The notes beneath the pieces are model-generated. The model ran no database searches. It saw nothing but the letters and a program-made list of their open reading frames with translations, and was not told the DNA's origin. From positions 1-35,926 of the forward strand of contig JAMPBI010000002.1 of assembly GCA_023666775.1 (NCBI GenBank): a stretch of DNA of 35,926 bases, given 5' to 3'. Positions within the stretch are counted from its first letter, which is position 1. Every line of letters starts with the position of its first letter. Position numbers and translations under genes: made by a program. Of this stretch, positions 1 to 28,088 are shown piece by piece. This DNA comes from Alistipes sp. GTDB taxonomy: Bacteria; Bacillota; Clostridia; Lachnospirales; Lachnospiraceae.

Positions 1-53
1 TGAGATTTAGTACATCAAGGGGACAGGGGATTTATATAAATAATAAAATTTTT

Positions 54-824
54 ATGAATTCTTGGAATATAAATGATGTTACATGTATAGAAACACCGGT
101 GTCATTTGGGGGATATAATGGAGATCAATTTGACGTTGGATTTGTAGGAGCGTTTACATATATCAATGGTCAGCCTCATAATCGGTATCGATATCGGACA
201 ACATCTATTGAAGCACAGTCAATTGGAAGGTTTTGCATGATCGCGCAGGATTGCATAATTGGTATGGGAGGACATCCAATGAATGCAATTACGGGAAGTG
301 CTGTATTTAAAGCAGGAAATGCGTGGTGTGAAAACTGGTATTCTGATAAAGGATATAACTGGCTTGATAAAATGGCACAAAAATATAAGGAAGCAGCATA
401 TAAACCGTTGCCTATAATAGGAAATGATGTGTGGGTTGGAGAGGGAGTAAAAATTTTAAATGGAGTAAACATTGGAGACGGAGCTGTTATTGCTGCCGGG
501 GGGGTAGTAGTCAATGATGTAGAACCATATACTGTAGTAGGCGGTGTTCCGGCAAGGAACATTAAAAAAAGATTTTCTGACAATATAGTGGAACGGCTTC
601 TAAAACTTTGTTGGTGGGAGTATGGAGTGGATATTATGGTTGGTATTGATCTGTATTGTCCGGATAAAGCCGTTGAATTATTGGAAGAAAGAGTCCATAT
701 TGGGCAACAGAAGTATATTGCAGATAGTTTTGAGTTTCATTGGGATAGTAATTCTATTTACTATTGCCATCAAAACAAAAAACAATTTTATAGTTATATT
801 GATAAAATAAGGAGCTTAAAATGA
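54..824 (+). CDS. Hexapeptide-repeat (LbH) acetyltransferase of the xenobiotic acetyltransferase (XAT: Vat/CatB-like) class, probably a sugar O-acetyltransferase
   Basis: The motif [52 protein letters not shown] is followed by LLKLCWWEY, which is typical of XAT-class enzymes. The stop overlaps the next start (ATGA at 821-824). No good SD precedes ATG 54, so the start is uncertain. Confidence 0.8.
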
Positions 825-1729
825 ATAGATGCATGTTGTGTGGTGGAAATGAGTTTGAGTTTGTTCATAATTTGCGCGATGATAGTAAACGTCATGTGTA
901 TCAATGCAGGAAATGTGGACATGTACAGGTATTGCCGCTTCCTACTGTTGATGAAGATTATCAATACTATCAGACAGGTGTTATGTATTCGGGGATGTTT
1001 GTAAATAAATCGGATATTGAAGATGTTGAAAGAACCGCAAATAGAGCACGTAAATTCGCTGAAAATCAACATAAAAAATTAATTCCTTTTTTACATGCAG
1101 ATTGGAAAATACTGGAGATTGGTTCTGCGTTCGGTTGGTTAGTAGAATATATGCAGAAGCTTGGATATGACTTTAATGGTGTTGAGATTTCAGAATTGTA
1201 TAGAGAGGCGTACCACAGGAGAACAGGAAAAAATTTATATAATTTTAATTTATTATGGGATAATCAGGATACAATCAGACATTATGGTGTATATGACTGT
1301 ATTGTATTGTTTCATACATTAGAACATATTAATGATCCTGTCAAATTTTTGTTAAATGCGAGAAAATTATTGAAGATCGGGGGGGTAATTTATATTGAAG
1401 TTCCAAACAATGATGATTGGATGATGGGACAATCACAAAAATATATGGATTTTCACTTTGCGAGAAGTCATGTATCTTATTTTACAAAAGAGACATTAGA
1501 GTTGGTGCTTGGGAAATCCGGTTTCTGCAATATTTCAGTAGAAGGAAATCAGATATACTCCATAGAGAATGTCTTTCAATGGTTTAGAAAAGATGAACCA
1601 TTTTTAGAATATCATCAGATAGATGTTCCGGAACCGTTGGAATGGTTGAATGAGCTGTATAAAAGGCGTATTGAAGAGGAGATGAAATCTTTTGCAATAA
1701 TTGGTAAGGGGACCAAGGTAGCAGATTAA
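821..1729 (+). CDS. Class I SAM-dependent methyltransferase with an N-terminal CxxC...CxxC zinc-ribbon
   Basis: The N-terminus CMLCGG...CRKCGH forms a 4-Cys ribbon. Motif I reads [11 protein letters not shown], and the Rossmann-fold post-motifs read [12 protein letters not shown] and [14 protein letters not shown]. The gene is ATGA-coupled to the upstream gene. Confidence 0.75.
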
Positions 1730-1869
1730 ACAGAAGTGAATTTGAGGTTGATCCTTCAAATCATTAAGGCGTGCGTAATTTTAGGCAATTTGGAGCGGAT
1801 CATGAAGAATTTCTGTTTAGTACCCGGTACTAGTAGGTATTGGAAAAGATAGTGTTACGGACATTTTCG

Positions 1870-1898
1870 TTTACAAAAATGAGGCGTTAATGTATAAT
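1870..1898 (+). promoter_or_regulatory. Putative sigma-A type promoter (TTTACA-17 nt-TATAAT) in the 200-bp gap upstream of the GT2 genes
   Basis: TTTACA lies at 1870-1875 and TATAAT at 1893-1898, with a hand-counted 17-nt spacer. AGGAGG at 1916-1921 precedes ATG 1931. Confidence 0.35.
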
Positions 1899-1930
1899 GA
1901 ACACAGAATGCGTGCAGGAGGAAGTATATT

Positions 1931-2950
1931 ATGAGTAAGATATTGTCGGTTTCCATAGCGGCATACAATGTGCAAAGCACATTAGAGGAAGCACTGCTTC
2001 CGTTTACAAAGAGCAAATATAAAGAAAAGCTGGATATAATGATCATTAACGACGGTTCAAAGGACGGTACGGCAGATATCGCGAAAAGGTATGAGCAGAA
2101 ATTTCCGGGAGTTTTTCGGTTAATTAATAAAGAAAATGGAGGCTGGGGATCAACATTAAATGTTGGAATGAAGGAAGCGAGTGGAAAGTATTTCAAGCAG
2201 CTGGATGGAGATGATTATTTTTCGGAAGAAAATCTGGACGGGTATATTGAATTTTTATCGGAATGTGACGCGGATATTGTTCATACACCTTATGTCGCAT
2301 ATGATGATAAAACGGGTTCAATATTAAGAAGTTTTGGCGCATATGGGAAAAATATTCTGCCGCAGAGACGAAAGGTTAAGTTTTCAGAGTTGGATGGATT
2401 TATTCCGGCTATGCACACATTGACCGTGAGAACACAGATTTTAAAAGATAATCCAATAAATATAACGGAGCATTGTTTTTATACCGATGTAGAGTTTCTT
2501 TTGAAAGTTTGTAATTATAGTGAGACAGTTATGTATTATGAACTTCCTATTTATTATTACAGACTGGCAAGAAATGGTCAGAGTATGAGCGTGGAAGGTG
2601 TTCGTAAGCATTATAAAGATCATTTAAAAATGCTCAAAACAATGCTGGAATATGAAAAAAAGAATGTGGATTCAGAGTGGAGGAAAAAGTTATTCCGGCT
2701 TCGGCTGGAAAATGCTTGTGATATGCAGTACAAGTTCTTTTTTGCCCTGAAAAAGAATGGACAGGCTAAGAAAGAAGTTCAGGAATTTGACAAAATGTTA
2801 AGGGACGAATATCCATATTATTATGAGAAAACGAAAAGCAGGATAATAAGCAGTTTGAGAAACAATAATTTCATTGGATATAATGTATTTGCAAGGGTTG
2901 CGGACAGTAGATATAAAAAATTAAAATTAGGAATATACGAAGGGTGTTAG
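1931..2950 (+). CDS. Family 2 glycosyltransferase (GT-A fold)
   Basis: The N-terminal motif is SVSIAAYNV...LEEAL, followed by IINDGSKDGT and a DGDD (DxD) motif. A strong SD is present. Confidence 0.85.
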   Translation: MSKILSVSIAAYNVQSTLEEALLPFTKSKYKEKLDIMIINDGSKDGTADIAKRYEQKFPGVFRLINKENGGWGSTLNVGMKEASGKYFKQLDGDDYFSEENLDGYIEFLSECDADIVHTPYVAYDDKTGSILRSFGAYGKNILPQRRKVKFSELDGFIPAMHTLTVRTQILKDNPINITEHCFYTDVEFLLKVCNYSETVMYYELPIYYYRLARNGQSMSVEGVRKHYKDHLKMLKTMLEYEKKNVDSEWRKKLFRLRLENACDMQYKFFFALKKNGQAKKEVQEFDKMLRDEYPYYYEKTKSRIISSLRNNNFIGYNVFARVADSRYKKLKLGIYEGC

Positions 2951-2952
2951 TT

Positions 2953-3933
2953 ATGGGTGTAAAAATTAGTGTAATCGTTCCTTTTTATAAAACTCCGATT
3001 ATAAAATTTAAAGTTTGTATTGAAAGCTTTTTAAATCAATCGTTTAAAGATTTTGAGTTACTGTTGATTGATGATGGTAATAGCTCAAAGTATAAAGAAG
3101 TTTGTGAAGAATATGTAAAAAATGATGACAGGGTGAAACTTATTTCACAGAAAAATTCCGGTGTTTCTGTAGCCAGAAATGCAGGACTTAAAAATGCGGA
3201 AGGGGAGTACATCATTTTTTGTGATAGCGATGATTATGTGGACAGTAATTTTTTGGAAGTGATGTATAACAACGTTTTGAATTATGATTTAGTCATCTGC
3301 GGTGTTTGTGAGCAGCATTTTCCAAGTAACGACTCGTCGGTTGACATGAAGGTGTTTTATTCTACGCCGACACAATATAACTGGATTCAGTATGTTAATT
3401 TCACTCCAAATAAGATATTTAAGAAATCCATTATTGAGGACTACTCTATTAAATTCGATCCGAAGGTTCGTTTAGGAGAAGACGCATTATTTGTGGGTGA
3501 ATATTTAAAACATTGTAAACATGTGCGTTGTATTAAAGATGCGATGTATCATTATGTGATAAATGAAAAGTCTGCTATACACACATATGACGCAAGGTAC
3601 TGGCAGTGGGAAAAGAGGGTTATTGAGCTTCAATATGAAATGTTTACGCAGTATCCATTGAATAAACAGGGACAGGAATTTATGCAGCGGTGGCTTTATA
3701 TAAAAATGAAAAGCTGTCTGTATTATTATATGTCGAATGAAAAAAGAAAGAAATATAAGAATAAGTTCCTGCATGAAATCATACATCACAAATATTTTAG
3801 GCATATTTTTAATGAATATAATAAAAATGGCTTTTATGGTAAAGGTGATAAAATGATTTTATTTGTTTGGAAGTTATTAGGAGAAAATGGAATTAAGATG
3901 ACTCATTGGTATTCGGCGCATAGAAGGCGGTAA
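2953..3933 (+). CDS. Family 2 glycosyltransferase (GT-A fold)
   Basis: Motifs ISVIVPFYK, LLLIDDGNSS, VSVARNAGL and CDSDD are present. The ORF track starts at GTG 2944, which overlaps the upstream stop. ATG 2953 (MGVKISV) is the more conventional start. Confidence 0.85.
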   Translation: MGVKISVIVPFYKTPIIKFKVCIESFLNQSFKDFELLLIDDGNSSKYKEVCEEYVKNDDRVKLISQKNSGVSVARNAGLKNAEGEYIIFCDSDDYVDSNFLEVMYNNVLNYDLVICGVCEQHFPSNDSSVDMKVFYSTPTQYNWIQYVNFTPNKIFKKSIIEDYSIKFDPKVRLGEDALFVGEYLKHCKHVRCIKDAMYHYVINEKSAIHTYDARYWQWEKRVIELQYEMFTQYPLNKQGQEFMQRWLYIKMKSCLYYYMSNEKRKKYKNKFLHEIIHHKYFRHIFNEYNKNGFYGKGDKMILFVWKLLGENGIKMTHWYSAHRRR

Positions 3934-3976
3934 GGGCGGATTTATCAATTGTGTTATAAGGAAATGAGGGAAAACG

Positions 3977-4852
3977 ATGGATAAAGAATATTTTTTAAAA
4001 AAATATAATCTGGACGATGAATTTAAAAATACATCATTAAGCTGGAATGTGTTTGATGAGATCTATGTTGATTATAAAGATAACCATTATGAGAATGTTG
4101 TAAAACAAACAGAAGAATTAGTTGGGAAATTTTATGAAGTACTTAATCAGGTCGATGAGAAAGAAAGGGTTAAGGTAGATACAATATTCGGTAGAGCTAA
4201 AAATCCAGAGCATTTGATTGAAAAAATTATTCGAAAAATTGCATTGGAAAATAAAGAAAGATATTCTAAAATTTCTAAGCAAAGCTATTTGTCCGTTGTG
4301 ACAGATGTCATTGGTATAAGAATATTAGTGTTAGCTAAAGAAGATTGGAAGATTGCCGATGATATTATAAGGACAATATTTCAAGGCTCGATTAAAGAGG
4401 CTAAGGCGTATGTGTGTTATGGAGATAGAAAGATATTTAATGAAAATCTGTTGACGCCTGATTATACAAATAGAGGTTACCGTTCCCAGCATTATGTTAC
4501 TGATTGGAAACAATATTATGCTGAAATACAGGTGAGGACATTGGCAGAAGAGGTTCATGGGAATCTGGAACATAGGGTGAGATATCCATATCGGGTTGAT
4601 AATAAGTTTTTAAAAAGGTATGGCAAGGTAATATCACAAAATGTTTCGCAATTAGATGCGTTGATTTCAACATGTGTTTGCTTAAATGATAAAACTTTGG
4701 ACGTATTGAATCAGCAGTTCAAAGATGATGAGTATGTTGATTGGTCTCAAAATCACAAAACAAGTGAAACCGTTCATATAGAAGAAAAAGAAAAACGTAA
4801 AGAGAATCTTGATGCAAGACTGGTAGCTAAAGAAATATTGGAGAAAAGATAA
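3977..4852 (+). CDS. RelA/SpoT-domain protein (small alarmone synthetase fold; nucleotide pyrophosphokinase-like), candidate toxSAS
   Basis: The order of SAS motifs matches RelP/RelQ-type synthetases. They are GRAKNPEHLIEKIIRK (RxKxxxS/KxxRK), TDVIGIRILV (D-x-x-G-x-R), GYRSQHYV (GYRSxH) and AEIQVRTLAEEVHGNLEHRVRYPY (EIQxRT...EH...Y-x-Y). An SD (GAGGG) lies 6 nt before the ATG. The protein carries extra N-terminal (about 70 aa) and C-terminal (about 80 aa) regions of unknown function. Confidence 0.8.
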   Translation: MDKEYFLKKYNLDDEFKNTSLSWNVFDEIYVDYKDNHYENVVKQTEELVGKFYEVLNQVDEKERVKVDTIFGRAKNPEHLIEKIIRKIALENKERYSKISKQSYLSVVTDVIGIRILVLAKEDWKIADDIIRTIFQGSIKEAKAYVCYGDRKIFNENLLTPDYTNRGYRSQHYVTDWKQYYAEIQVRTLAEEVHGNLEHRVRYPYRVDNKFLKRYGKVISQNVSQLDALISTCVCLNDKTLDVLNQQFKDDEYVDWSQNHKTSETVHIEEKEKRKENLDARLVAKEILEKR

Positions 4853-4866
4853 AGCGGGGTAGAAAA

Positions 4867-5082
4867 ATGGAAACGCGTACAAGTAAGGAAAATATGAAGA
4901 TGCTGATTCAAGAAGGAGTCAATGGAGTTACGAAGAAAGATACAATGCCTAACTCGGCATTTCCGTTGGAGAATGAGGCGGAAGCAATGTATTTTAAATC
5001 AGCAAGGGATTTTTTGGAAACAGTGGCTGCACATGTTATATTTAGTGCTGATGAGGAAGAGTCAGGGGGAATATGGATATGA
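4867..5082 (+). CDS. Small acidic hypothetical protein (71 aa), possible cognate partner or antitoxin of the RelA/SpoT-domain protein
   Basis: The ORF starts 14 nt after the upstream stop, with GGGGT 7 nt before the ATG. Its stop overlaps the ATG at 5079 as ATGA. It is rich in D/E and has no recognisable motif. Whether it is coding is supported only by this coupling geometry. Confidence 0.4.
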   Translation: METRTSKENMKMLIQEGVNGVTKKDTMPNSAFPLENEAEAMYFKSARDFLETVAAHVIFSADEEESGGIWI

Positions 5083-5636
5083 TAGAAAATACTTATCAGG
5101 GATTAATTGGTCGAGTTGGAAAAGAACATTTTGAAGCACGGTTTGACGAGTTGGTTAAACAGATTCAGGTCTTTTTGGAAGAAGCTAAATATGATGATAG
5201 TGTTCAACTGAATGAGCGAATACTATATCATGTATTATTGGATTTTTATTCAGATATTGAACGGTTGAAGGATTTTCATGGTATTGTCAATGTCAAGACG
5301 GATAAAATTATTGCATATCTTTTATCGTGGTTCATTAGAAGAAAACCTATCCAGATCACCGAATGCAGTAAAGATGAGAAGGATATTTTTGTCAATGAGA
5401 GATTTGCGTGTACGCTTTTAATTAATGAATGTTTATCTGATAAAAGTATTGGAGAAATTGATACAAGACTGGATGATTTTAAACTGGATTATTATAAGCG
5501 CTATGTTGAATTGTTGTTGTATTATTTCAAGTATCGGGCAGTTAATCCACAGGTAATTGAGCTTGTTATAGAAAGTTTTAAAGTGGGAAGGTTATTTCCT
5601 GTAATAAATAAAGTAGAGGTGCATAATGAAATATGA
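5079..5636 (+). CDS. Hypothetical, predicted all-helical protein (about 185 aa), third gene of the RelA/SpoT cassette
   Basis: The ORF track starts at ATG 5073. ATG 5079 has GGGGGA 8 nt upstream and forms an ATGA overlap with the previous stop. No HD, Walker or other catalytic motif was recognised. The 3' end overlaps the glf start by 11 nt. Confidence 0.55.
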   Translation: MIENTYQGLIGRVGKEHFEARFDELVKQIQVFLEEAKYDDSVQLNERILYHVLLDFYSDIERLKDFHGIVNVKTDKIIAYLLSWFIRRKPIQITECSKDEKDIFVNERFACTLLINECLSDKSIGEIDTRLDDFKLDYYKRYVELLLYYFKYRAVNPQVIELVIESFKVGRLFPVINKVEVHNEI

Positions 5637-6723
5637 TTTTTTGGTAGTTGGCGCAGGAATTTTCGGAGCTGTCTTTGCGCACGAGGCAAAAGCAGCAGGG
5701 AAAACCGTTTTGGTTATAGATAAACGTGATCATATTGCAGGTAATATTTATACAGAGAATATAGAGGGGATTAATGTTCATAAGTATGGAGCCCATATTT
5801 TTCATACATCGGATAAACAGGTTTGGGATTATGTGAATCGGTTTGCTGAATTTAATAATTATGTTAATTCGCCGATTGCGATTTACAAGGATGAGTTATA
5901 TAATCTGCCGTTTAATATGAACACATTTAGTAAGATGTGGGGGATTAAAACGCCTGACGAAGCGAAGAAGATTATTGGCGAGCAAAAGAAACAGTATTAT
6001 GTTGAAAATCCGTCAAATCTTGAGGAACAGGCGTTGTCGCTTGCGGGGAAAGATGTGTATGAGAAACTGATAAAAGGGTACACGGAGAAACAATGGGGAA
6101 GAGATTGCAGGGAATTGCCGGCATTTATTATTAAGAGACTTCCGTTCCGCTTTACCTATAATAATAATTATTTTAATGACCGCTATCAGGGGATACCGAT
6201 TGGCGGCTACACGGCAATTGTTGAAAAAATGCTGGCTGGTATTGATGTACGGCTGAAGACTAATTTTTTAAAAGAACAGCAAAAATATGCGGATATTGCG
6301 GACAAAATAATTTATACAGGTATGATTGATCAATACTTTGAGTATAAATTAGGTGTTTTGGAATACCGCTCTGTGCGTTTTGAAACAGAAAAACTTGATT
6401 GTGAGAATTATCAGGGCAATGCCGTGGTGAATTATACGGACAGGGAAGTTCCATACACAAGAATAATTGAGCATAAACATTTTGAATTTGGCGATCAGCC
6501 AATAACGATTATTTCGCGTGAATATTCCAGTGAATGGCATAAGGGAGATGAGCCTTATTATCCGGTGAATGATGAAAAGAATAATGCGTTATATGAACAA
6601 TATAATGAACTGGCGTTAAAAGAGAATAAGGTTATATTTGGAGGAAGACTGGGAAGTTATAAGTATTATGACATGGATAAGACTGTCAGGGCGGCATTAG
6701 ATATGGCGGAGAAATTTTTATAG
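5626..6723 (+). CDS. glf: UDP-galactopyranose mutase
   Basis: The N-terminal FAD-binding motif is YDFLVVGAGIFGAVFAHEA, followed by GNIYTE, HKYGAHIFHT and a C-terminal FGGRLGSYKYYDMD. Length (365 aa) and motifs are classic for Glf. Confidence 0.95.
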   Translation: MKYDFLVVGAGIFGAVFAHEAKAAGKTVLVIDKRDHIAGNIYTENIEGINVHKYGAHIFHTSDKQVWDYVNRFAEFNNYVNSPIAIYKDELYNLPFNMNTFSKMWGIKTPDEAKKIIGEQKKQYYVENPSNLEEQALSLAGKDVYEKLIKGYTEKQWGRDCRELPAFIIKRLPFRFTYNNNYFNDRYQGIPIGGYTAIVEKMLAGIDVRLKTNFLKEQQKYADIADKIIYTGMIDQYFEYKLGVLEYRSVRFETEKLDCENYQGNAVVNYTDREVPYTRIIEHKHFEFGDQPITIISREYSSEWHKGDEPYYPVNDEKNNALYEQYNELALKENKVIFGGRLGSYKYYDMDKTVRAALDMAEKFL

Positions 6724-6792
6724 AAACATATTAGTTAAAAAGTAAGCGATATAATACAATGATTTACCATTAGGGAAGAAGGAGATAAATAG

Positions 6793-7650
6793 ATGGCAAT
6801 TACAAACAAAAAAATCCTAATAGCAGTAATTGTTGTGCAAATGGCAGTATGTATATTATTGGGAACACAGAAAAACGGTTGGTTTACTGATGAAACATGG
6901 TCATACGGATTGGCAAACAGTGAAAATTATACTTTCATTGATGCTGAGACAGCAAAGGGAAATTCGGAAACAGGGTGGGTTGATAAAAATTTCTTTGAGG
7001 ATTATGTTGTTGTTTCGCGTGATGTCCCGATTTCCTTTAACGCGGCATTTGAGAACCAAAGAAATGATGTGCATCCACCGTTGTATTATTGTTTGCTGCA
7101 TGTTTTTTGTTTATTGAACCGGGGGTCTTTTTCAAAATGGACCGGGTTAGCGTTAAATTTTTTGATATTGTTTTTTATTGACCTGTTAATGTATTATATT
7201 GCGAATTATTTGTTAAAAGACGAAAAATTGTCTATTATTCCAATCTTGCTATGGTCATTTTCCGGTGTAGGGTTGAGTAACATTTTATATATACGTATGT
7301 ATTTGCTTTTGACATGTGAAATGCTTGCGTATGTAGCAATCCATATTAAATTATTAAAACAACATACAGTTAAGATAAAGGACACTTTTAGTATATTACT
7401 AATTGTTGCGTGCGGAGGTCTTACACATTATTATTTTTATCTGTTTGTGGTATGCTTTTCTGCGCCAATATGTATGTATTTTTTGCTGACTAAAAAAATC
7501 AAAAAAATGTTTATGTATGGGATCAATATATGTGCGGGTGTTGGAATGGCGTTATGTATTTTCCCTGAAGCTTTGGTACATATATTTGGCGGTTACCGTG
7601 GTACAGAAGTGATTGGCAATCTTGTACATGGCAGGAGTGCGGGGGGGTAA
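6793..7650 (+). CDS. GT-C fold (ArnT/PMT, GT39/GT83-like) membrane glycosyltransferase, N-terminal fragment ending directly after a G7 tract
   Basis: The first-loop motif is FTDETWSYGLAN (DE...Y...A), followed by HPPLYYCLLH and multiple TM helices. The ORF terminates at TAA 7648-7650, immediately after GGGGGGG at 7641-7647. Confidence 0.65.
   Translation: MAITNKKILIAVIVVQMAVCILLGTQKNGWFTDETWSYGLANSENYTFIDAETAKGNSETGWVDKNFFEDYVVVSRDVPISFNAAFENQRNDVHPPLYYCLLHVFCLLNRGSFSKWTGLALNFLILFFIDLLMYYIANYLLKDEKLSIIPILLWSFSGVGLSNILYIRMYLLLTCEMLAYVAIHIKLLKQHTVKIKDTFSILLIVACGGLTHYYFYLFVVCFSAPICMYFLLTKKIKKMFMYGINICAGVGMALCIFPEALVHIFGGYRGTEVIGNLVHGRSAGG
7641..7647 (+). repeat. G7 homopolymer at the frameshift point of the split GT-C gene
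   Basis: The run was counted directly (gtgc ggggggg taa). The downstream ORF's frame is open from 7569, so one additional G would fuse the two ORFs. Confidence 0.9.
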
Positions 7651-7664
7651 TTGCTAAAGTTTAT

Positions 7665-8453
7665 TTGGAAATGATTAATAATTCCATGTTTGCGGGTACT
7701 ATTAAAGCCTGTCTGGTTTTGGTATTACTATTGATACTGATCCATATTACAAAACATTTTGTCAAGATGGAATGTACATTTAACAAATTAACAAGAGAGG
7801 TTAGTATTCGATTTATAAGGACAGAAAATAGAGGTATTCCGCAAATTTGTTTTACACTTACGGATGAGTTCATATTGGAGATATTGCTCTTTATATCATA
7901 TGGTATATTTTTTCTGGCAGCAATAAATGGCAGCGAACTTGTTACCAACAGATATATATACCCTATATATCCGGTTATTGCACTGATAACAGTAAAGCTA
8001 ATTAAAGATCTGCTCAGGAATATGATACGTTCCAATCATATAAAGAGTATAATCATTTTTGTTTTTTCCATTATACTCTGTTTCGGGAGTGTTATGAAAT
8101 ACAAAATCGATTATCTGTATTTGGACTATAATGGAATTTATCACAATGCGCAGGAAGTTAGGGGAACGGATTGTCTGTTGTATTGTGGTGACGGTTGGGT
8201 GGATGTATATGGCGGGTTTTCTCTTAGGCTGTTACATGATGAAACATATTTTGTAAGATCGTATGAGTTGTATGATATTGAGGCGATACTTTCCGTAAGG
8301 GATACGGCAGATGGTTTGACGATATGTTTGCCAAGTGAATATTCGGATGAAGATACCAGAATCATATTAGATACAATTACTGCGCAGACAGGACTGCAAA
8401 GTTATCGGTATATATTTAAATTTTTAGGGGTACAGGAATGGCTTCTTGAATAA
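7665..8453 (+). CDS. C-terminal fragment of the same GT-C membrane glycosyltransferase (TM helices plus an extracytoplasmic C-terminal domain)
   Basis: Only a TTG start is available and there is no SD. The frame is open upstream to 7569, overlapping the end of 6793-7650. The content continues as TM helices followed by a soluble tail of about 110 aa. Confidence 0.6.
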   Translation: MEMINNSMFAGTIKACLVLVLLLILIHITKHFVKMECTFNKLTREVSIRFIRTENRGIPQICFTLTDEFILEILLFISYGIFFLAAINGSELVTNRYIYPIYPVIALITVKLIKDLLRNMIRSNHIKSIIIFVFSIILCFGSVMKYKIDYLYLDYNGIYHNAQEVRGTDCLLYCGDGWVDVYGGFSLRLLHDETYFVRSYELYDIEAILSVRDTADGLTICLPSEYSDEDTRIILDTITAQTGLQSYRYIFKFLGVQEWLLE

Positions 8454-8488
8454 AGTCAAAGAGAACGTATATAAAATGTGAAAGTTGA

Positions 8489-8513
8489 AAATAGAAATTT
8501 CTATTTATTTTTT
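8489..8513 (+). terminator. Weak AT-rich hairpin plus T-run downstream of the GT-C gene
   Basis: AAATAGA/TCTATTT forms a stem (8489-8506), followed by ATTTTTT. The stem is AT-only, so stability is low. Confidence 0.3.
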
Positions 8514-8579
8514 AGGTAATATATGATAGAATTTATTCATAAATGTTTCATTTAATTTTAGGATAAAGGAGAAAAGAAA

Positions 8580-10601
8580 ATGGGAAAAACAGGTAAAAAA
8601 ATTCTAAAGTTGACCACGGCATTACTTTTAACGGTTGTATTGATAATTCCGTTAAACGTTAATGCCCAAACAAATTCGGCGTCGGATGTCATGCCTGAGG
8701 GAAGTGCTTTACAGCAGAACCAGGCGGAAGATGATGTCGTGCTTACAGAAAAATATTCCAATACGGACACCGAGATGGTGATTTTAGACGGCGGCGAGAA
8801 ACGGGTACAGAGTTCCGGGTATGTATCAAAGAAGGGGCTTCAGGGAGCCAATCCTTTTTTGGATGCGCATTATGCGGATCTTGGAGTAACACAGACTCTT
8901 TATAACTGTAATCTTTTAGATATTATCGGAACGCCATCGGATCATGAGATAGTATATGTTTATAACGGAAAAACGTATTATTTTAATTATATCATGGGCT
9001 TAAGCACACAGACACATGCGTTAAATGAGGCTGGAATAGATATATCGGTAGTACTCTTGCTTCCTTATAAATCTCAATATGCTAATATGATTTATTCAGG
9101 CGCGCGGGGGGATACCGGAAGAACATATTATGCATGGAATTTGGATGATCCGGAGACAGCAGAGCTTTTTGAAGCGATTATAAATTTCCTGGCAGATACT
9201 TACAGTAAAAAAACAGGTGATGAGTGGGAAGTATATATCAAAAACTGGATTATCGGTAATGAAGTTAATATGCCGAATCATTGGAATTATACAGGAACGT
9301 TGGATCTTAATACAAATGTTAATTTATACGCAAGGCAGTTTAAGCTGGTTAGCGAGACCTTGGCACGCTATAGCGCGGAATATAATGCGGATATGAAAGC
9401 GTATATTTCAATCGAGCATAGTTGGATGGATAATGATGAGGGAAGGGGCATTGCCGGAAAAACATTTATTGATGCGTTTGCAGCCAGATTGAATGAAATT
9501 GCTCCGGGAATGAATTGGAATTTAGCGTATCACGCATATCCGGCGATTATGACCGATTCCAATATATGGAATTCAGGTTATACAACAAACGATATTAACA
9601 CCAGATTTATATCCGGTAAGAATCTTAATATTTTAACAAATTATATTAAGAATACTTATGGAAGTGATAAGAGGATTATTTTGTCAGAACAGGGCTTTAC
9701 GATGAGCGGCGGACAATATGCGCAGCAGGCGGCGGCACTTGCGTATACATATTATATGGCAGAGTTTGACGATATGATAGACGCTGTGATTTTCAGAAGT
9801 CTGCAGGATAATGATGCAGAAGCTGCACAGGGATTTAATTTTGGTCTGTTAAATAAAGACGAAAGCATGAGACCTGCGTATAATGTGTTTAAATATATGG
9901 ATACTGCATATTGGTATGAATATACAGCGGATTGCTTGTCAACTATAGGTATATCCGACTGGGCGCAGGTTATTCCCGGATTTAATGCGTTAAAATTTTC
10001 TAATGCGAATGGGTTATGCTTAGGCAGCGATGGAAATTGGCATTATTATGAAAATGGTGAAATTAATCGTAATTTTGTCGGAATGGCAGAAAATGAATAT
10101 GGCTGGTGGTATATTCGGAACGGTGAGATTGATTGGAGCTTTACCGGAATGGCGGAAAATGAGTATGGCTGGTGGTATTTTAGAAATGGTGCCATTGATT
10201 GGAGCTTTACCGGAATGGCAGAGAATATATATGGCTGGTGGTATTTCAGAAATGGCGCCATTGATTGGAGCTTTACCGGAATGGCGGAAAATGAGTATGG
10301 CTGGTGGTATTTTAGAAATGGTGCCATTGATTGGAGCTTTACCGGAATGGCAGAGAATATATATGGCTGGTGGTATTTTAGAGATGGCTCCATCGATTGG
10401 AACTATACCGGAATGGCAGAAAATGAGTATGGCTGGTGGTATATACGGAATGGATTTATTGATTGGAGTTTTACCGGCATTGCGGAGAATATGTATGGCA
10501 GATGGTATTATCAGAACGGACAAATTGCTTGGGGATATTCCGGAACCGTTGATTATGATGGAGTAACATATACGATTGTGAATGGAATAGTAGCAGAATA
10601 G
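8580..10601 (+). CDS. Secreted TIM-barrel glycoside-hydrolase-like protein (clan GH-A style NE...E) with a C-terminal 22-residue aromatic wall-binding repeat domain
   Basis: A signal peptide is present (…LNVNA/QT). WIIGNEVNMPNHW is a candidate acid/base motif and ILSEQGF, about 140 aa later, a candidate nucleophile. Eight 22-aa repeats (EYGWWYxRNGxIDWSFTGMAEN) follow. Confidence 0.75.
   Translation: MGKTGKKILKLTTALLLTVVLIIPLNVNAQTNSASDVMPEGSALQQNQAEDDVVLTEKYSNTDTEMVILDGGEKRVQSSGYVSKKGLQGANPFLDAHYADLGVTQTLYNCNLLDIIGTPSDHEIVYVYNGKTYYFNYIMGLSTQTHALNEAGIDISVVLLLPYKSQYANMIYSGARGDTGRTYYAWNLDDPETAELFEAIINFLADTYSKKTGDEWEVYIKNWIIGNEVNMPNHWNYTGTLDLNTNVNLYARQFKLVSETLARYSAEYNADMKAYISIEHSWMDNDEGRGIAGKTFIDAFAARLNEIAPGMNWNLAYHAYPAIMTDSNIWNSGYTTNDINTRFISGKNLNILTNYIKNTYGSDKRIILSEQGFTMSGGQYAQQAAALAYTYYMAEFDDMIDAVIFRSLQDNDAEAAQGFNFGLLNKDESMRPAYNVFKYMDTAYWYEYTADCLSTIGISDWAQVIPGFNALKFSNANGLCLGSDGNWHYYENGEINRNFVGMAENEYGWWYIRNGEIDWSFTGMAENEYGWWYFRNGAIDWSFTGMAENIYGWWYFRNGAIDWSFTGMAENEYGWWYFRNGAIDWSFTGMAENIYGWWYFRDGSIDWNYTGMAENEYGWWYIRNGFIDWSFTGIAENMYGRWYYQNGQIAWGYSGTVDYDGVTYTIVNGIVAE
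10029..10556 (+). repeat. Coding tandem repeats, 66-bp unit (22 aa) x 8, including a 132-bp higher-order repeat
   Basis: The spacing between successive GGAATGG motifs is 66 nt. The 66-mer at 10140-10205 is identical to 10272-10337. Confidence 0.9.
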
Positions 10602-10618
10602 TAATAAAATAGTCAGAG

Positions 10619-10654
10619 TAAGGGAGAAACAAGTTTTCTTCCTTACTTTTCTTA
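10619..10654 (+). terminator. Rho-independent terminator after the hydrolase gene
   Basis: GTAAGGGAGAAA-CAAG-TTTCTTCCTTAC forms a 12-bp stem with one G-U pair, followed by TTTTCTT. Confidence 0.6.
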
Positions 10655-10727
10655 TGTAAAAAGAATTGTGCAAATGAGAAAAATAGTGTATATTAGTTAA
10701 GACTTATAAAATGTGCAGGAGGCTTTT

Positions 10728-12680
10728 ATGAAGCAGAGAGTTAAATGGATCGATATAGCAAAAGGCATATGCATGATTTCAGTAATATTGGGACATTTGG
10801 GAGTTCCGGAAATCAATGATGTTGTTTATGCGTATCATTTGTCGCTTTTTTTCATATTAAGTGGATATACAATGAAAAAAAATGCGGTAAATATGGAATA
10901 TCTCAATAAGAAATTTAATTCGCTTCTTCGGCCATATTTCATTACATGTTTTTGTATAATATTGCTGGATATATTTAACTGTTTCATGTTATGGCATAAT
11001 ACTTCTGGCGAATACGTCACCAATATAATAGCAAATGACATCATTAAAGCATTTTGGGCTTCCGGGGCTATTACAAATTTTGGGGCTATTGAGATAGGAT
11101 TGAGGATTGGCGTGATTTGGTTTTTACCGGCGCTGTTCTTTTCTTTAATATTTGTACAAGTGATTATCAATTATATTGAAAATAAGAAAATACAGTGTAT
11201 TATAGTGGCTGTTTGTGCTTTTGCCGGTATGGTTTCGGCGAGATTTATCTGGCTTCCCTTTAGTATCCAGTCTGCCCTTATGGCAGCGCCATATATATTG
11301 TTAGGCTATGAGATAAGGCAGAGAAATTGGATAAATAGACTAAATCTAAAGGTGTTTTTGGGGTGTCTTATAATATTTTTATTGGGGATTAAAGGACATA
11401 TATCGCTTATAAGTTTTGTTAATGCCGACGCACCGGACTTTTTTCTTTCTTTCATTGTAGGGGTTGCGTCAAGTCTTTGCGTTATATATATATCGATTAA
11501 AGTGAAAACATGCAGACCGCTTGAACTGATTGGTAAATATTCGCTTTATTTTATGTGTATTCATTTGTTGGAAGCAGAACAGATGGGAAGTTGGAAATGG
11601 AACATTTTAGAATATTTTGGAATAAATAATAAAATTGTTAATTTCGTTGTGCCATTGCTTTTGATTTCCTTTATTGTATTTTTGATCATTACACTAAAGA
11701 AGGCGGCCGCCGGTTTTAAAACCAAAGGCAATAAAGAAGAAACCGGTATGAATGAGAATACAATTTCGGATATTGCTATGGGGGGGTTAGTAATATTATT
11801 AATTTTGGGAAATTATGAGATTGCTCCAAATTTCCGAAATATAGTATATAGTTTTCATATGATGGCGTTTGTTTTTTATTTAGGATATTGTTTCAATGGA
11901 ACAGCTTGTGAAAATATGAAATATACAATCTGGGGGCTGATAAAAACATTTCTTTTCCCATACGGTTGTTTTAGCGTTATTTACTGTTTGATAACACATG
12001 AAGGGATTGAAATAGAAGTGAAAAATGTTTTATTGGCATTTAGCTCTTCTATAGGGGCTGCGTATTTTGTTTTGCTGCTTTTTTTGGTGAGTTTGTTATA
12101 TTTGTGTATTGAAAAATACATAAATCAGGATTGGAAGAAACATGTTGTTGTTTTGCTTTTTTCTTTAAGCGGATATTTCATAGGAAAGTTGGGATTTGCG
12201 CTTCCGTGGAATGCGGATATAGCCGCATACAGTATTTTATTTTATCATATAGGGCATTGCTTTAAAAAGTGTAATATTATGTCATATGTATGTAACAGAT
12301 ATTATTGGTATTTTTTATTAAGCGTTATTTGGGCGTATATGATATACCAGGGAGGAATGGAAATCCCGGTTAGGCGTTATGGAAATTATTCGTGGAGCTT
12401 ATTGGGGGTGGTTTGTGGAAGTCTTCTGCTATATATGTTTTCAGGAAGTATTTTGAAAACAAACGGAAAAATTGTGAGGATACTGGAAATCATTGGTAAA
12501 AGCTATATATATATATTGATTGTGCACACACTTTTTAATTATCATGTATATAAATTGTGTAGTCGGTTATGGGAAGCAGGAACTTTTCCACATCTGGTAG
12601 TTATAGTCATAATTCAGGTTTTTGTAGGAATGGTAATTGCGTTGAGTGTTAATAAAATGGTTTATAGGAAACGAGGTTGA
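10728..12680 (+). CDS. Acyltransferase family 3 (AT3) membrane O-acyltransferase, internally duplicated (two AT3-like halves)
   Basis: RVKWIDIAKGICMISVILGHLG...YHLSLFFILSGY is the typical AT3 N-terminus. The second half repeats the pattern as ISDIAMGGLVILLILGNYE...FHMMAFVFYLGY. AGGAGG lies 5 nt before ATG 10728, whereas the track starts at GTG 10713. Confidence 0.8.
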   Translation: MKQRVKWIDIAKGICMISVILGHLGVPEINDVVYAYHLSLFFILSGYTMKKNAVNMEYLNKKFNSLLRPYFITCFCIILLDIFNCFMLWHNTSGEYVTNIIANDIIKAFWASGAITNFGAIEIGLRIGVIWFLPALFFSLIFVQVIINYIENKKIQCIIVAVCAFAGMVSARFIWLPFSIQSALMAAPYILLGYEIRQRNWINRLNLKVFLGCLIIFLLGIKGHISLISFVNADAPDFFLSFIVGVASSLCVIYISIKVKTCRPLELIGKYSLYFMCIHLLEAEQMGSWKWNILEYFGINNKIVNFVVPLLLISFIVFLIITLKKAAAGFKTKGNKEETGMNENTISDIAMGGLVILLILGNYEIAPNFRNIVYSFHMMAFVFYLGYCFNGTACENMKYTIWGLIKTFLFPYGCFSVIYCLITHEGIEIEVKNVLLAFSSSIGAAYFVLLLFLVSLLYLCIEKYINQDWKKHVVVLLFSLSGYFIGKLGFALPWNADIAAYSILFYHIGHCFKKCNIMSYVCNRYYWYFLLSVIWAYMIYQGGMEIPVRRYGNYSWSLLGVVCGSLLLYMFSGSILKTNGKIVRILEIIGKSYIYILIVHTLFNYHVYKLCSRLWEAGTFPHLVVIVIIQVFVGMVIALSVNKMVYRKRG

Positions 12681-12684
12681 GATA

Positions 12685-14412
12685 ATGAAAAACACATACG
12701 GTATTTTAGTTATTTTTTTAATTGTTTTTTGGGGAGGCATAATATTAAATCCCTTGAGCTTATTTGGAGCACAGTTTGATGGAGAAACAGAGGACTCCCC
12801 ATATGAAAAAGGTGGACTGGTTCATATGGAAGTGTTAGAAAACGTTTCCTTAGAAGATGAAATTTCGCTTCAAAATCATGAAAATAATTTACCTTCTAAA
12901 TATATGGTTGGTGATGAATTATATTGGAAAAATTTTTCCGGTTCTTTCTATTATGAACAGATGCCGGATAAAATTAAAAAGTTATGGAAACAGATGGAAC
13001 AGGCGTGCATATTAGCGGCTGTTTCTGATCAGGATTGCAGTTTTGTAAGTGTTCAAGTAAATAGTTCGGATAATTTTTCAAGGCAGGAAATTGTAGATTT
13101 TATTTTGATTTTTAAATATTCTAATCCGCAATATTATTTCTTATCAAATAAGATGTTTATAAATAGCGTAGACGACGAAAGAAATGTGGGAATTTATTTA
13201 TATGAAGAATTTAAAGATGGCACTGTAAGAAAAAAAGCAACGGAAATGTTCACTCAAAAGATGAATAATTGGATTGCCGTGATACAGAAAGAAAAGTATG
13301 ATGAAGATAAACTTAAAGCCGCGCACGATATAATTGTCCAAAATACGAAATACGGATATGGAACGTATGACCAATCTGCGTATAGCATGGTTTGCGAGGG
13401 TGTGACGGTTTGTGCGGGATATACGGCGGCGTTGCAAATGCTTTTGAATGCGGTTGGTATTGAAACAGCAGAGGTTACCAGTGATTCCCATAGCTGGAAT
13501 ATTGTCAGACTTCATGATTATTGGTATAATGTAGACGTTACATGGGCTGACAGTACGGTTGTTATATATGATTATTACAATAAAAGTGATGTAACATTTA
13601 GGGCAAATACAACGATGCATGATCCGGAGACTATTTGGGATGGATTATTGCCGGAAATGAAGTATGATTCGGTTGCTTTAAAGAGAACCGCGTATAGGCC
13701 TGCTTATATTCAAGACGGAGGATATGATTATTTTATCATAAATGATAATCTATCTATTGAAGCTGCTTTGGTAAAGGTTATTGGAATTGGCGGTGAGGTT
13801 ATTGACAGAGTCCCGAATATCCTTGTTTATGGAGATAAGGCATATTCAGTTACAAATTTTGATGAGTTATTGTTGTCTGTTAATGGGTTAAATTTAGGAG
13901 ATGATGGTATATGGCATTATTATAATTACGGTCTGATTAACGATTTTTTTGTAGGAATGGCAGAAAATGAATACGGCTGGTGGTATATAACAGATGGTCA
14001 GGTCAATTGGACTTATACGGGAATGGCAGAAAATGAGTATGGCTGGTGGTATTATCATGACGGACAGCTAGACTGGGATTACACAGGAATGACATGTAAT
14101 GAATACGGCTGGTGGTATTATCGTAATGGACGGCTGGACTGGGATTATACGGGAATGGCATGTAATGAATACGGCTGGTGGTATTATCGTAATGGACGGC
14201 TGGACTGGGATTATACGGGAATGGCATGTAATGAATATGGCTGGTGGTATTATCGTGACGGACAGCTGGACTGGGATTACACGGGAATGGCAGAAAACGA
14301 ATATGGCTGGTGGTATTATTCCAATGGAATGATTGACTGGTCTTATACCGGCTTTGGAGAAAATCAGTACGGACAATGGTATTTTGAGAATGGACGTATT
14401 GTATACGATTGA
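12685..14412 (+). CDS. Secreted transglutaminase-like (Cys-His-Asp papain-fold) protein with a C-terminal 22-residue wall-binding repeat domain
   Basis: A signal peptide follows ATG 12685, with GAGGT upstream; the track start at 12646 overlaps the previous gene. The core motif is CAGYTAALQMLLNAVGI...HSWNIV...NVDVTWAD (C...H...D). Seven full 22-aa repeats plus a terminal partial repeat follow. Confidence 0.78.
   Translation: MKNTYGILVIFLIVFWGGIILNPLSLFGAQFDGETEDSPYEKGGLVHMEVLENVSLEDEISLQNHENNLPSKYMVGDELYWKNFSGSFYYEQMPDKIKKLWKQMEQACILAAVSDQDCSFVSVQVNSSDNFSRQEIVDFILIFKYSNPQYYFLSNKMFINSVDDERNVGIYLYEEFKDGTVRKKATEMFTQKMNNWIAVIQKEKYDEDKLKAAHDIIVQNTKYGYGTYDQSAYSMVCEGVTVCAGYTAALQMLLNAVGIETAEVTSDSHSWNIVRLHDYWYNVDVTWADSTVVIYDYYNKSDVTFRANTTMHDPETIWDGLLPEMKYDSVALKRTAYRPAYIQDGGYDYFIINDNLSIEAALVKVIGIGGEVIDRVPNILVYGDKAYSVTNFDELLLSVNGLNLGDDGIWHYYNYGLINDFFVGMAENEYGWWYITDGQVNWTYTGMAENEYGWWYYHDGQLDWDYTGMTCNEYGWWYYRNGRLDWDYTGMACNEYGWWYYRNGRLDWDYTGMACNEYGWWYYRDGQLDWDYTGMAENEYGWWYYSNGMIDWSYTGFGENQYGQWYFENGRIVYD
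13903..14409 (+). repeat. Coding tandem repeats, 66-bp unit, with one perfect 66-bp tandem duplication
   Basis: 14095-14160 is identical to 14161-14226 (tgtaatgaatacggctggtggtattatcgtaatggacggctggactgggattatacgggaatggca). Confidence 0.9.
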
Positions 14413-14434
14413 CAGGAAGAAAGGAAAGAGGAGT

Positions 14435-16279
14435 ATGAAGAGAAAAAGTATTGTTTCTATTATTTTGGTGCTAATGTTGGTATTTAGTAATTTGCATTGG
14501 AATTATGATACAATATATGCAGGGGAACAGGACGAATTTTATCAAATGACGGAAGAGAATATTGTTCAGGCGTTGCTTTATTTATGCGATAGTTATGATA
14601 TTAAAGCATTGCCGGATTTAAATAGTGAATCGGTGGTTACGATTTATTCAGGACAAACAGTAAATCTTGTTGGTATTGAGATTGTTGATGTTGATGTATG
14701 GTATAAGGTGAGGACGGCAATTAGTGATATTGAATATGAGGGATATATAGAGAGGGATTACCTTCTTTGTACAAATGAATTACTTATTGAATGGGAGAAG
14801 GAGAATATTAGCTGGGAGTATCTTAACAAGGCAGTTCTGTATTCGAGTTATGCCGATATAGAACAATTTCCTGAGAGTTATCGTGCATACTTATATGAAT
14901 TGAAGGCAGCGCATCCTAATTGGAATTTTGTTAAGTTTAATACAAATCTGGACTGGAATACGGTTGTAAATAATCAGATGTATGAAGGCAGGAATTTAGT
15001 ACCTTCAAGTTATGGCGAGGCATGGAAAACGGGGAGATATGATAATAATTGGAGTATGGCGTCAAGGGCGGCAGTTCAATATTATTTAGATCCGAGAAAT
15101 TATCTTAATGAGACCTATATATTCGCAATGGAGCAATTAACATACAATGCGACATATCATAATCTTAATGGTGTGCAAAATATTATAAACGGAACGTTTA
15201 TGGAAGGAGAGATACCGGGAGAAGGTATTGGATATGCGCAGGCATTTTATGAAATAGGGAGTGAAATCGGAGTCAGTCCGTATCACCTTGCAAGCCGGGT
15301 TAAGCAGGAACAGGGAGTGGCGGGAACTTCACCGCTTATTTCCGGCGAATATCCGGGATTTGAGCATTTATATAATTATTTTAATATAAAAGCAAGTGGA
15401 GTAACAAATACGCAAATATTTGTCAATGGCTTAACATATGCAAGGGAGGCAGGCTGGGTAACCAGATGGCTGGCATTAAAGGGAGGCTCACAATTTATTG
15501 CCAATAGTTATATTTTGAGGTTTCAGGATACCCCATATCTTCAAAAATTTGATGTTGATGCCAGTTATGATGGTTTATATATGCATCAGTATATGCAGAA
15601 TATAGTAGCCCCAATGAGTGAGGGGAAGACGATGAAGAATGCATATACAAAGTCAAATAGCATTGATAATGTGTTTTCTTTTAAAATCCCTGTATATGAT
15701 AATATGCCTGATTATGCTTCGCCGGTTCCGGGTGATAATGCTAATTTATCCGGATTGCAGATGGGAAATGACGGAATTTGGAGATACTATAGAAATGGTA
15801 CTGTCGCGTATGACTTCACAGGAATGGCAGAGAATGAATATGGCTGGTGGTATATCACGGACGGTGAAATAGATTGGAATTACACGGGAATGGCAAGTAA
15901 CGAATATGGCTGGTGGTATTACCGGAACGGACAGTTGGATTGGACATATACAGGAATGGCATGCAACGAATACGGCTGGTGGTATTACCGGGACGGACAG
16001 CTGGACTGGGCTTATACGGGAATGGCGTGTAATGAATATGGCTGGTGGTATTACCGAAGCGGACAGTTGGATTGGACATATACAGGAATGGCATGTAATG
16101 AATATGGCTGGTGGTATTATCGGGACGGGCAGTTGGATTGGACATATACAGGAATGGCAGAAAATGAGTATGGCTGGTGGTATTACCAGAATGGAAACTT
16201 AGACTGGACTTATACTGGTTATGCTTCAAATGAGTATGGTGAATGGCATTTTACCAACGGGGTTATTGATTGGACGTAA
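14435..16279 (+). CDS. Secreted peptidoglycan hydrolase: SH3b domain plus GH73-like N-acetylglucosaminidase domain plus a C-terminal 22-residue wall-binding repeat domain
   Basis: A signal peptide follows ATG 14435, with AAGAGGAG upstream. An SH3b-like segment reads VVTIYSGQTVNLVG...VWYKVR. GVSPYHLASRVKQEQG...YNYFNIKASG...TPYLQKFDV resembles clostridial GH73 autolysins. Seven full 22-aa repeats plus a partial repeat follow. Confidence 0.75.
   Translation: MKRKSIVSIILVLMLVFSNLHWNYDTIYAGEQDEFYQMTEENIVQALLYLCDSYDIKALPDLNSESVVTIYSGQTVNLVGIEIVDVDVWYKVRTAISDIEYEGYIERDYLLCTNELLIEWEKENISWEYLNKAVLYSSYADIEQFPESYRAYLYELKAAHPNWNFVKFNTNLDWNTVVNNQMYEGRNLVPSSYGEAWKTGRYDNNWSMASRAAVQYYLDPRNYLNETYIFAMEQLTYNATYHNLNGVQNIINGTFMEGEIPGEGIGYAQAFYEIGSEIGVSPYHLASRVKQEQGVAGTSPLISGEYPGFEHLYNYFNIKASGVTNTQIFVNGLTYAREAGWVTRWLALKGGSQFIANSYILRFQDTPYLQKFDVDASYDGLYMHQYMQNIVAPMSEGKTMKNAYTKSNSIDNVFSFKIPVYDNMPDYASPVPGDNANLSGLQMGNDGIWRYYRNGTVAYDFTGMAENEYGWWYITDGEIDWNYTGMASNEYGWWYYRNGQLDWTYTGMACNEYGWWYYRDGQLDWAYTGMACNEYGWWYYRSGQLDWTYTGMACNEYGWWYYRDGQLDWTYTGMAENEYGWWYYQNGNLDWTYTGYASNEYGEWHFTNGVIDWT
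15770..16276 (+). repeat. Coding tandem repeats, 66-bp unit, same length (507 bp) as the array in the preceding gene
   Basis: EYGWWYYR(N/D/S)GQLDWTYTGMA(C/E)N units are repeated. The DNA shares long identical stretches (for example ggaatggcagaaaatgagtatggctggtggtat) with the other two arrays. Confidence 0.9.
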
Positions 16280-16287
16280 ACTATATG

Positions 16288-16337
16288 AAAGGAATGTTTG
16301 CCTGGTATGGGTTTAGGCAGACATTCCTTTTGTTTTT
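16288..16337 (+). terminator. Strong rho-independent terminator closing the AT-rich locus
   Basis: AAAGGAATGTTTGCCT-(11-nt loop)-AGGCAGACATTCCTTT forms a 16-bp stem with one G-U pair, followed by TGTTTTT. Confidence 0.75.
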
Positions 16338-16355
16338 AGGAAAATGTTTCTTTTA

Positions 16356-16384
16356 TTGCCATAATTTTTCCGTTGTAGTACAAT
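16356..16384 (+). promoter_or_regulatory. Putative sigma-A promoter (TTGCCA-17 nt-TACAAT) for the manC-like/manA fusion gene
   Basis: The hexamers lie at 16356-16361 and 16379-16384, with a hand-counted 17-nt spacer. GAGGTG precedes ATG 16411. Confidence 0.4.
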
Positions 16385-28087: not shown

Positions 28088-28088
28088 G

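Follow-up and report, generated by a model that had tools for sequence, protein, structure and literature searches.

A RelQ/RelP-like small alarmone synthetase with two orphan partner proteins: a candidate growth-arrest or regulatory module of gut Firmicutes

What might a small alarmone synthetase (SAS) be doing when its gene is followed, almost without a gap, by two genes for proteins that resemble nothing on record? Enzymes of this class have so far been known either as stand-alone housekeeping proteins or as toxins held in check by a few types of antitoxin. The question is raised by a cassette of three consecutive genes, here called A, B and C, at positions 3977-5636 of a 35,926-nucleotide stretch of DNA (hereafter the window) from contig JAMPBI010000002.1 of assembly GCA_023666775.1, registered as Alistipes sp. 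and placed by GTDB in the Lachnospiraceae. A preliminary description of this DNA had proposed a toxin-antitoxin or anti-phage module of the toxic SAS (toxSAS) type wedged into a wall-polysaccharide operon or, alternatively, a nucleotide-signalling device that regulates the polysaccharide pathway around it. The analysis presented here indicates that the cassette ties a RelQ/RelP-like enzyme to two conserved orphan proteins, one of which has a confidently predicted fold that is unmatched in the PDB. A function for B and C would either bring a new mechanism of neutralisation or activation into toxSAS biology, or uncover an alarmone pathway under regulation in abundant anaerobes of the gut.

The synthetase and its two partner proteins

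Gene A (3977-4852, + strand) encodes a protein of 291 amino acids, and a GAGG-type ribosome-binding site can be read a few bases upstream of its start. The preliminary description had taken the product for a catalytically competent SAS because of its motifs and had suggested a profile search with PF04607 (RelA_SpoT). This search recognises the RelA/SpoT SYNTH domain with an E-value of 2e-16 and a score of 60.6 bits (cut-off 27), and it is the sole domain found. The catalytic motifs (R73-x-K75-x3-H79-x3-K83, D110-x2-G-I-R115, G167-Y-R-S-Q-H172 and E183-I-Q-V-R-T) match those of the RelQ/RelP structures position by position in the alignment and are invariant in 33 homologues, so that A is, as first proposed, intact in its synthetase domain. 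With these motifs and a SYNTH domain free of HD, TGS and ACT domains, the protein falls into the SAS class of the RelA/SpoT homologue (RSH) superfamily.

Among PDB sequences, the A family profile reached only RelQ/RelP/YjbM/YwaC (E ~1e-7); CapRel, FaRel2 and Tas1 were not reached. Foldseek ranks the structures similarly when queried with the AlphaFold model of A, which has a predicted local distance difference test score (pLDDT) of 83.7: the best matches are the RelQ/RelP entries 2be3, 6fgj, 3l9d, 6ewz and 5dec (E 2e-8 to 1e-6, TM-score up to 0.75 on the target), and lower ranks are taken by long Rel (5e-6), CapRel (5e-5), the exported synthetase SaEAS (1e-4) and FaRel2 (6e-4). The alignments span ~205-225 columns and thus nearly the full length of the RelQ/RelP chains, which count 190-200 residues. 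Judging from this span and from the secondary structure of the model, the SAS fold of A would extend to about residue 235, which would leave no more than ~20 residues at the N-terminus and the tail 238-291 unassigned. The unassignable extensions of the preliminary description, then put at about 70 and 80 residues, do exist and are probably smaller than that.

The likeness to RelQ/RelP (YjbM/YwaC), which includes the motif set and a similar overall charge, has its limits. The NCBIfam YjbM equivalog gives A 23 bits where its cut-off is 320, identity to RelQ/RelP is 17-26 %, A has an extra tail of 50 residues, and RelQ/RelP are encoded by stand-alone genes whereas A is tied to two partners. The W-A of these enzymes had been noticed to be replaced by H-G; this holds for the window clade, in which H-G or Y-G occupies the position, and not for distant members, which keep the tryptophan in EGW[SGL]E. 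On these comparisons A appears to be a distinct family, neither RelQ/RelP proper nor any validated toxSAS subfamily. A further pointer concerns the substrate. The toxSAS enzymes that bind tRNA are basic, and the A proteins taken over their full length are mildly acidic, with a median isoelectric point (pI) of 6.0 (the core of the window protein has 9.5), which would favour a nucleotide rather than a tRNA as the acceptor.

The tail of A is modelled as a helix (238-250), a disordered linker (262-278) and a second helix (280-290). It contains the motif D251-x-Y253-x-x-W256 (window 4727-4744), invariant in the window clade, whose Y253-x-x-W256 recalls the YXXY of ATfaRel2 and CapRel; being absent from distant clades, it is a lead only. 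The idea that the tail serves generally as a docking site for B or C was rejected, as the motif is limited to the window clade and distant A proteins linked to B and C lack it.

Gene B (4867-5082, + strand) starts 14 nt past the stop of A, and the intervening gap (4853-4866) holds a G-rich ribosome-binding site. Its product counts 71 amino acids in the window and 75-85 in homologues and varies most among the three proteins, its mean column identity being 31 % compared with 47 % for A and 57 % for the near clade of C. The family consensus (L..E...G.....D.LPN......GE.EA.YF...R.FL.S.) is weak, with a recognisable G and LPN. B had been described as acidic; this is correct for the window protein (pI 4.6) and does not extend to the family, whose median pI is 6.8 (range 4.6-9.7). 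Searches of Pfam, NCBIfam, PADLOC and PHROGs with B gave no match, and neither its sequence nor its profile matches a PDB sequence (best profile E 0.32).

Gene C (5073-5636, + strand) starts either at 5073 or at 5079, for a product of 187 or 185 amino acids. The ATG at 5079 shares an ATGA (5079-5082) with the stop of B, and because of this stop/start overlap the translation of B and C is probably coupled. The protein is predicted to be almost wholly helical, with a pLDDT of 89.4 and a predicted template modelling score (pTM) of 0.85, and Foldseek finds no fold match for the model in the PDB (best E 1.6) or BFVD (best E 0.38). Readings of C as an HD/SAH (small alarmone hydrolase), MazG-like, TetR-like, HEPN or Panacea-like protein were discarded, as no match in these two collections fell below E 0.38. 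Pfam (queried also with 45 diverse members), NCBIfam, PADLOC (PADLOC-DB v2.0.0, which has no match to A or B either) and PHROGs returned nothing for C, and its sequence and profile match no PDB sequence. B and C thus stay as unrecognisable in every library tried as they were at first reading, and the statement that the cassette encodes no HD-type alarmone hydrolase stands as well: Pfam detects neither an HD nor any other domain in B or C.

C is nevertheless far from featureless. Its near clade has 29 invariant columns, and a strongly conserved polar set comprises D61, R64, K78, W86, R90-K-P-x-Q94, N108-E109, Y150, R155 and E163. Seven of these residues (D61, K78, W86, N108, E109, Y150 and E163) are invariant even at ~30 % pairwise identity, and R64, K66, Q94 and R155 are nearly so. 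A profile search of 1.84 billion proteins collected 910 representative clusters (50 % identity) at E<=1e-3, and knowing what B and C do would also give a role to this sizeable orphan family. Two of the proteins collected (P0246 and P0252, ~365 amino acids) consist of two tandem C domains.

The triad as a unit and its known counterparts

The three open reading frames (ORFs) lie where the preliminary description had placed them, with the same spacing: the 14-nt gap between A and B, the ATGA, and an 11-nt overlap (5626-5636, + strand) of C, which has its stop at 5634-5636, with glf, which has its ATG at 5626. All three are real genes, for conserved homologues number from dozens to hundreds in each case. 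When the genome collection was scanned with the A profile and the best 80 loci were considered, A, B and C were found in the same order and on the same strand in about half (~40/80). In related loci, A and B are usually separated by 0-40 nt (extremes -59 and 61), B in most cases overlaps or directly adjoins C, and a B gene in the middle position is a nearly constant feature. A metagenome scan with a subset of the C alignment, in which loci were taken for C relatives ~30-36 % identical to the window protein, gave the same order in every locus with a distant C and enough upstream DNA. Since the arrangement is kept at such a degree of divergence, the triad is old and effectively obligate.

It had been suggested that the genes might travel together outside polysaccharide loci, and this is what they do: the triad recurs with widely differing flanks. 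The immediate neighbours at 30 non-redundant loci (101 genes) represent 119 Pfam families, none of which is dominant; glf adjoins the cassette in the window only, and distant clades adjoin amino-acid transport, RecQ or arabinose genes. The module is therefore independent of its neighbours. From the sequences collected, it occurs widely among gut Firmicutes, and Lachnospiraceae of the human gut and their relatives commonly carry it. C. difficile is not among the best 80 genome loci of the A-profile scan; cloRel, a SAS subgroup from Firmicutes defined by Atkinson et al. 2011, includes C. difficile sequences (PMC3153485). A literature search found no paper describing the triad, and the sources label its members only as 'hypothetical protein'.

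How does this arrangement compare with SAS systems already described? Conserved two- and three-gene operons built on a SAS predicted toxicity (Jimmy et al. 2020, PMC7229694), and the cassette is such an operon, tightly coupled and with non-housekeeping partners. To this extent the toxSAS architecture that the preliminary description had seen in it is real, whereas membership of a validated toxic subfamily does not follow, RelQ/RelP ranking far above CapRel and FaRel2 among the matches of A. The same description had not recognised a toxSAS arrangement with two partners, for which a precedent exists in FaRel. In Cellulomonas marina, faRel is the middle gene between two antitoxin genes, aTfaRel-faRel-aT2faRel (PMC7229694, PMC11782079), and the partners are an HD-domain SAH and a small specific antitoxin (PMC11782079). 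The two-partner layout is thus already known; what is new is the partner proteins B and C. Both systems are three-gene operons in which a SAS without the long-RSH regulatory domain is joined by two partners, one small and the other conserved and enzyme-like. However, FaRel is central while A comes first, and the conserved partner of FaRel is a SAH while C has neither an HD domain nor a known fold. Pfam, the PDB profiles and the fold of C likewise reveal none of the known antitoxin types as a partner, be it SAH/HD, the pZFD-like ATfaRel2/ATcapRel or Panacea/DUF4065.

The pairs FaRel2:ATfaRel2 and CapRel share the SYNTH fold with A. An antitoxin of ~73 amino acids or a fused C-terminal domain there blocks the ATP site by means of the YXXY. 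However, the fold matches of A to these proteins are the weaker ones given above, A is not basic overall, and the FaRel2 toxin structures 8pu1/8pu3/8pu4 resemble it less than RelQ/RelP do, the comparison having been made with FaRel2. The B profile has no PDB match although ATfaRel2 is deposited (PDB 8PU2, PMC11782079). PANGU type I offers another kind of precedent. Its SAS, which is non-toxic alone, forms an inert tetramer (Pag1B/GRel) that is activated by the partner Pag1A, whereupon pppGpp is made and the infection aborted (bioRxiv 10.64898/2026.04.06.716658). As in the cassette, a SAS that produces (or, for A, would produce) an alarmone stands in a tight operon with what may be a non-enzymatic partner, so that B-C could by analogy be a switch or sensor. 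PANGU consists of two genes, however, and its partner is a YejK-like nucleoid protein, to which B and C show no similarity.

Proposed mechanism and rival explanations

The explanation to which we tentatively give preference is that A-B-C is a self-contained, old and vertically stable three-gene module of the toxSAS kind, which would arrest growth in conflict or stress under the control of B-C. As an active RelQ/RelP-type pyrophosphokinase, A would transfer the beta-gamma pyrophosphate of ATP to a 3'-OH, and the acceptor would most likely be a purine nucleotide, giving an alarmone of the (p)ppGpp or (p)ppApp type, rather than tRNA. Through translational coupling B and C would be made in fixed proportion to A, and the two together could act as one control unit dedicated to A, binding it and setting how active it is. 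Left unrestrained, A might flood the cell with alarmone, drain ATP and GTP and so stop growth; B-C would either neutralise it, or release or activate it upon a trigger such as, possibly, phage infection. The neutralising variant would resemble FaRel: B, small and variable, would take the part of a type II-like antitoxin, and C, conserved and enzyme-like, that of the second partner. That the three genes overlap and that their flanks vary speaks for a conflict module; the likeness to RelQ/RelP, the existence of clades without partners and the high conservation of C speak for a switch or regulatory function. The toxSAS or defence reading is thus plausible and unproven, and a switchable, non-toxic synthetase under B-C control is nearly as likely.

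A number of observations weigh against a toxSAS-like module. Both in sequence and in fold A is closest to the non-toxic RelQ/RelP and not to CapRel or FaRel2, and C exceeds A in conservation and has polar residues that never vary, an unusual trait in an antitoxin. In a rough neighbour-joining tree, two A-only clades fall inside the family linked to B and C. One of these, from Enterocloster/Clostridium (L040-L080 group), comprises proteins of 260-330 amino acids encoded beside peptide deformylase, MgtE, GalT or phosphotransferase system (PTS) genes; the other, from non-Firmicutes (L036, L038, L041, L052, L057, L059 and L075), comprises proteins of 340-420 amino acids with an unassigned C-terminal extension of 100-150 residues. 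The enzyme is therefore tolerable without B and C. The distribution of the cassette is a further such observation: C homologues are absent from 72,556 plasmids and 50,697 phage genomes, the cassette occurs in 1 of 2.9 million viral contigs, and in a common human-gut species it occupies a single fixed locus (L108-L171) between DUF975 and genes for a Na:Ala symporter, a polysaccharide deacetylase and recQ, as seen in 63 metagenome contigs of at least 92.6 % nucleotide identity. Matches to PADLOC are no commoner beside loci with all three genes than beside A-only control loci. Even the two apparent single-chain B-C proteins (P0289 and P0315), which passed both the B and the C models and hint at a joint action of B and C, may have arisen through single-base assembly errors where stop and start overlap, as a one-base indel there gives the same fused picture in some contigs, low-coverage judging by their names.

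The 63 contigs with the same flanks, the absence from plasmids and phages, and a second strain of the window lineage that has the same GT2-A-B arrangement (GT2 90 %, A 86 % identical) argue that the cassette is a stable resident of the chromosome rather than a recent insertion. An apparent asymmetry in pseudogenisation among the human-gut contigs, with A and B disrupted and C intact, was set aside: it consists of scattered singleton indels, probably assembly errors, and is not usable because the contigs are low-coverage judging by their names and the loci had been selected for an intact C.

Defence genes do occur nearby. A SIR2-STALD-TIR gene lies directly upstream of the cassette in one locus (L084), and DpdF and several PDC candidates are found at others; the neighbours in the A-only control set include Lamassu, restriction-modification and reverse transcriptase genes. 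Enrichment in defence islands was dropped as evidence, the A-only controls being equal or higher, and the mad3/mad8 matches look generic because they are present in both sets. In L084-L086 the stretch upstream of A (5877-7883) encodes SIR2-STALD-TIR, split in two contigs into SIR2 and STALD-TIR, within an island of the flagellin-glycosylation type.

Surface-glycan genes tell a different story, with glycan or flagellin-glycosylation neighbours at 9/41 ABC loci by seed BLAST and at none of the 40 A-only loci (0/40). Within the window clade, islands for surface glycans or flagellin glycosylation contain or adjoin the cassette in the window and in L172, L087, L001, L006/7, L009, L084-86, L088 and L089, and flagellin genes adjoin it in L081-83, L008 and L024; the recurrent neighbours are NeuB, CTP_transf_3, MptE-like, GtrA, Acyl_transf_3, GT2 and flagellin genes. 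Our tentative reading of this trend is residence in variable islands rather than a common pathway. As a general function, the regulation of the surrounding polysaccharide pathway put forward in the preliminary description finds no support given how widely the flanks vary, even though the excess of glycan neighbours is real.

A may instead belong to a peaceful system, in which it would be a non-toxic, RelQ/RelP-like housekeeping or stress SAS, and B and C its sensor or regulatory subunits for an envelope or metabolic cue, with no toxin-antitoxin or immune role. We regard this as a serious possibility, if a somewhat less probable one than a growth-arrest module. The relationship to RelQ/RelP, the stand-alone A clades in housekeeping contexts, the defence neighbours not exceeding controls and the chromosomal, fixed and highly conserved state of the cassette in a common gut species, outside the plasmid and phage collections, all suit it, as do the strong conservation of all three proteins, C most of all, and the glycan or flagellin-glycosylation neighbours counted above, to which L084, L087, L088 and L089 may be added. 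However, known housekeeping SAS are stand-alone genes, toxicity elsewhere in the SAS subfamilies was predicted by just such an overlapping set of three genes with small orphan partners (PMC7229694), and the flanks differ between lineages, so that no single pathway is served. Should the cassette act directly in the biosynthesis or modification of wall polysaccharide, for instance by pyrophosphorylating a sugar-nucleotide or a lipid-linked intermediate, one would understand its apparent translational coupling to glf amid glycosyltransferases in the window, the same locus in the related strain and the recurrence of glycan-locus contexts. This we consider very improbable, as 32/41 ABC loci have no glycan genes nearby, distant clades have the amino-acid transport, RecQ or arabinose neighbours mentioned before, and the neighbouring Pfam families are heterogeneous.

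Two further proposals turn on the nature of C. As a sub-variant of the toxSAS-like module, C could be an enzyme with a fold not seen before, for example a phosphohydrolase, which breaks down the product of A or takes a 3'-pyrophosphate off tRNA and thereby acts as a type IV-like antitoxin analogous to the SAH ATfaRel, while B tethers C to A or is a separate type II antitoxin. The acidic, basic and aromatic residues that remain invariant at ~30 % identity would make sense in an active site, C is more conserved than A, the FaRel operon joins a toxSAS, a hydrolase and a small antitoxin (PMC11782079), and with 185 all-helical residues C has much the size and class of a SAH. We nonetheless hold this to be unlikely: C has no HD motif and no Pfam match, Foldseek detects no HD, MazG or other hydrolase fold in the PDB or BFVD, and the conserved residues would fit a protein-protein or ligand-sensing surface equally well. 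The roles might even be reversed, as in the type VII system HepT/MntA, with C as a HEPN-like RNase toxin (R64-x4-H69) that A neutralises by covalent modification. SYNTH and MNT are both nucleotidyltransferase folds of the Pol-beta-like kind, the order of a transferase followed by a helical protein is that of MntA-HepT, and a long helix of C ends in R-L-K-D-F-H, which fits Rx4H. However, H69 varies in the wider C family (Q or E in some members), the residue after the arginine is not polar as it is in HEPN motifs, Pfam, PDB profiles and Foldseek give no HEPN match for C, and B would be left without a role; we give the reversed arrangement hardly any credit.

The cassette could also be a previously undescribed three-component nucleotide-signalling system of gut Firmicutes, in which the new-fold C reads (as a receptor) or destroys (as a hydrolase) what the RelQ-like synthetase makes and, with B, converts an alarmone enzyme of the housekeeping type into a triggered growth-arrest or immune switch. 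We consider this picture doubtful.

The surroundings of the cassette in the window

In this genome the cassette appears from the sequence to be co-transcribed with the wall-polysaccharide operon. A promoter/terminator scan found no terminator-like site on the + strand between 1 and 8836 and chance-level counts of promoter-like sites in the window; Rfam and tRNA scans of the window were both empty. A look-up for an empty site with the exact glf product gave no match. By Pfam, two GT2 genes lie upstream of A and glf lies downstream of C, in agreement with the preliminary description; the 'GT-C' gene that it had placed after glf is not confirmed, the place being taken by two adjacent multi-pass membrane ORFs (6793-7650 and 7665-8453, + strand) of 285 and 262 amino acids, the second with a TTG start. 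They show a faint match to Glyco_transf_22 (E 0.02) and may represent either two genes or the halves of a single GT-C-like gene interrupted by a stop or frameshift.

Further downstream, three + strand genes (8580-10601, 12646-14412 and 14333-16279) encode secreted proteins with six choline-binding repeats (PF21540) apiece and differing N-terminal domains: DUF5722, transglutaminase-like and unassigned. An Acyl_transf_3 gene (10713-12680) stands among these wall proteins. From about 17 kb onward, housekeeping genes of higher G+C follow, among them a ManC/PMI fusion, an M6 peptidase-like gene and mfd. With glycan and wall genes around the cassette and housekeeping genes beyond, the region is a chromosomal wall-polysaccharide locus. 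The base composition changes along the window, from a G+C content of 31-38 % over ~1-17000, the glycan locus including the cassette, to 43-51 % over 17000-35926; it is the glycan island as a whole, cassette included, that is compositionally distinct. Every long ORF of the window is on the + strand, and the GC skew is strongly positive.

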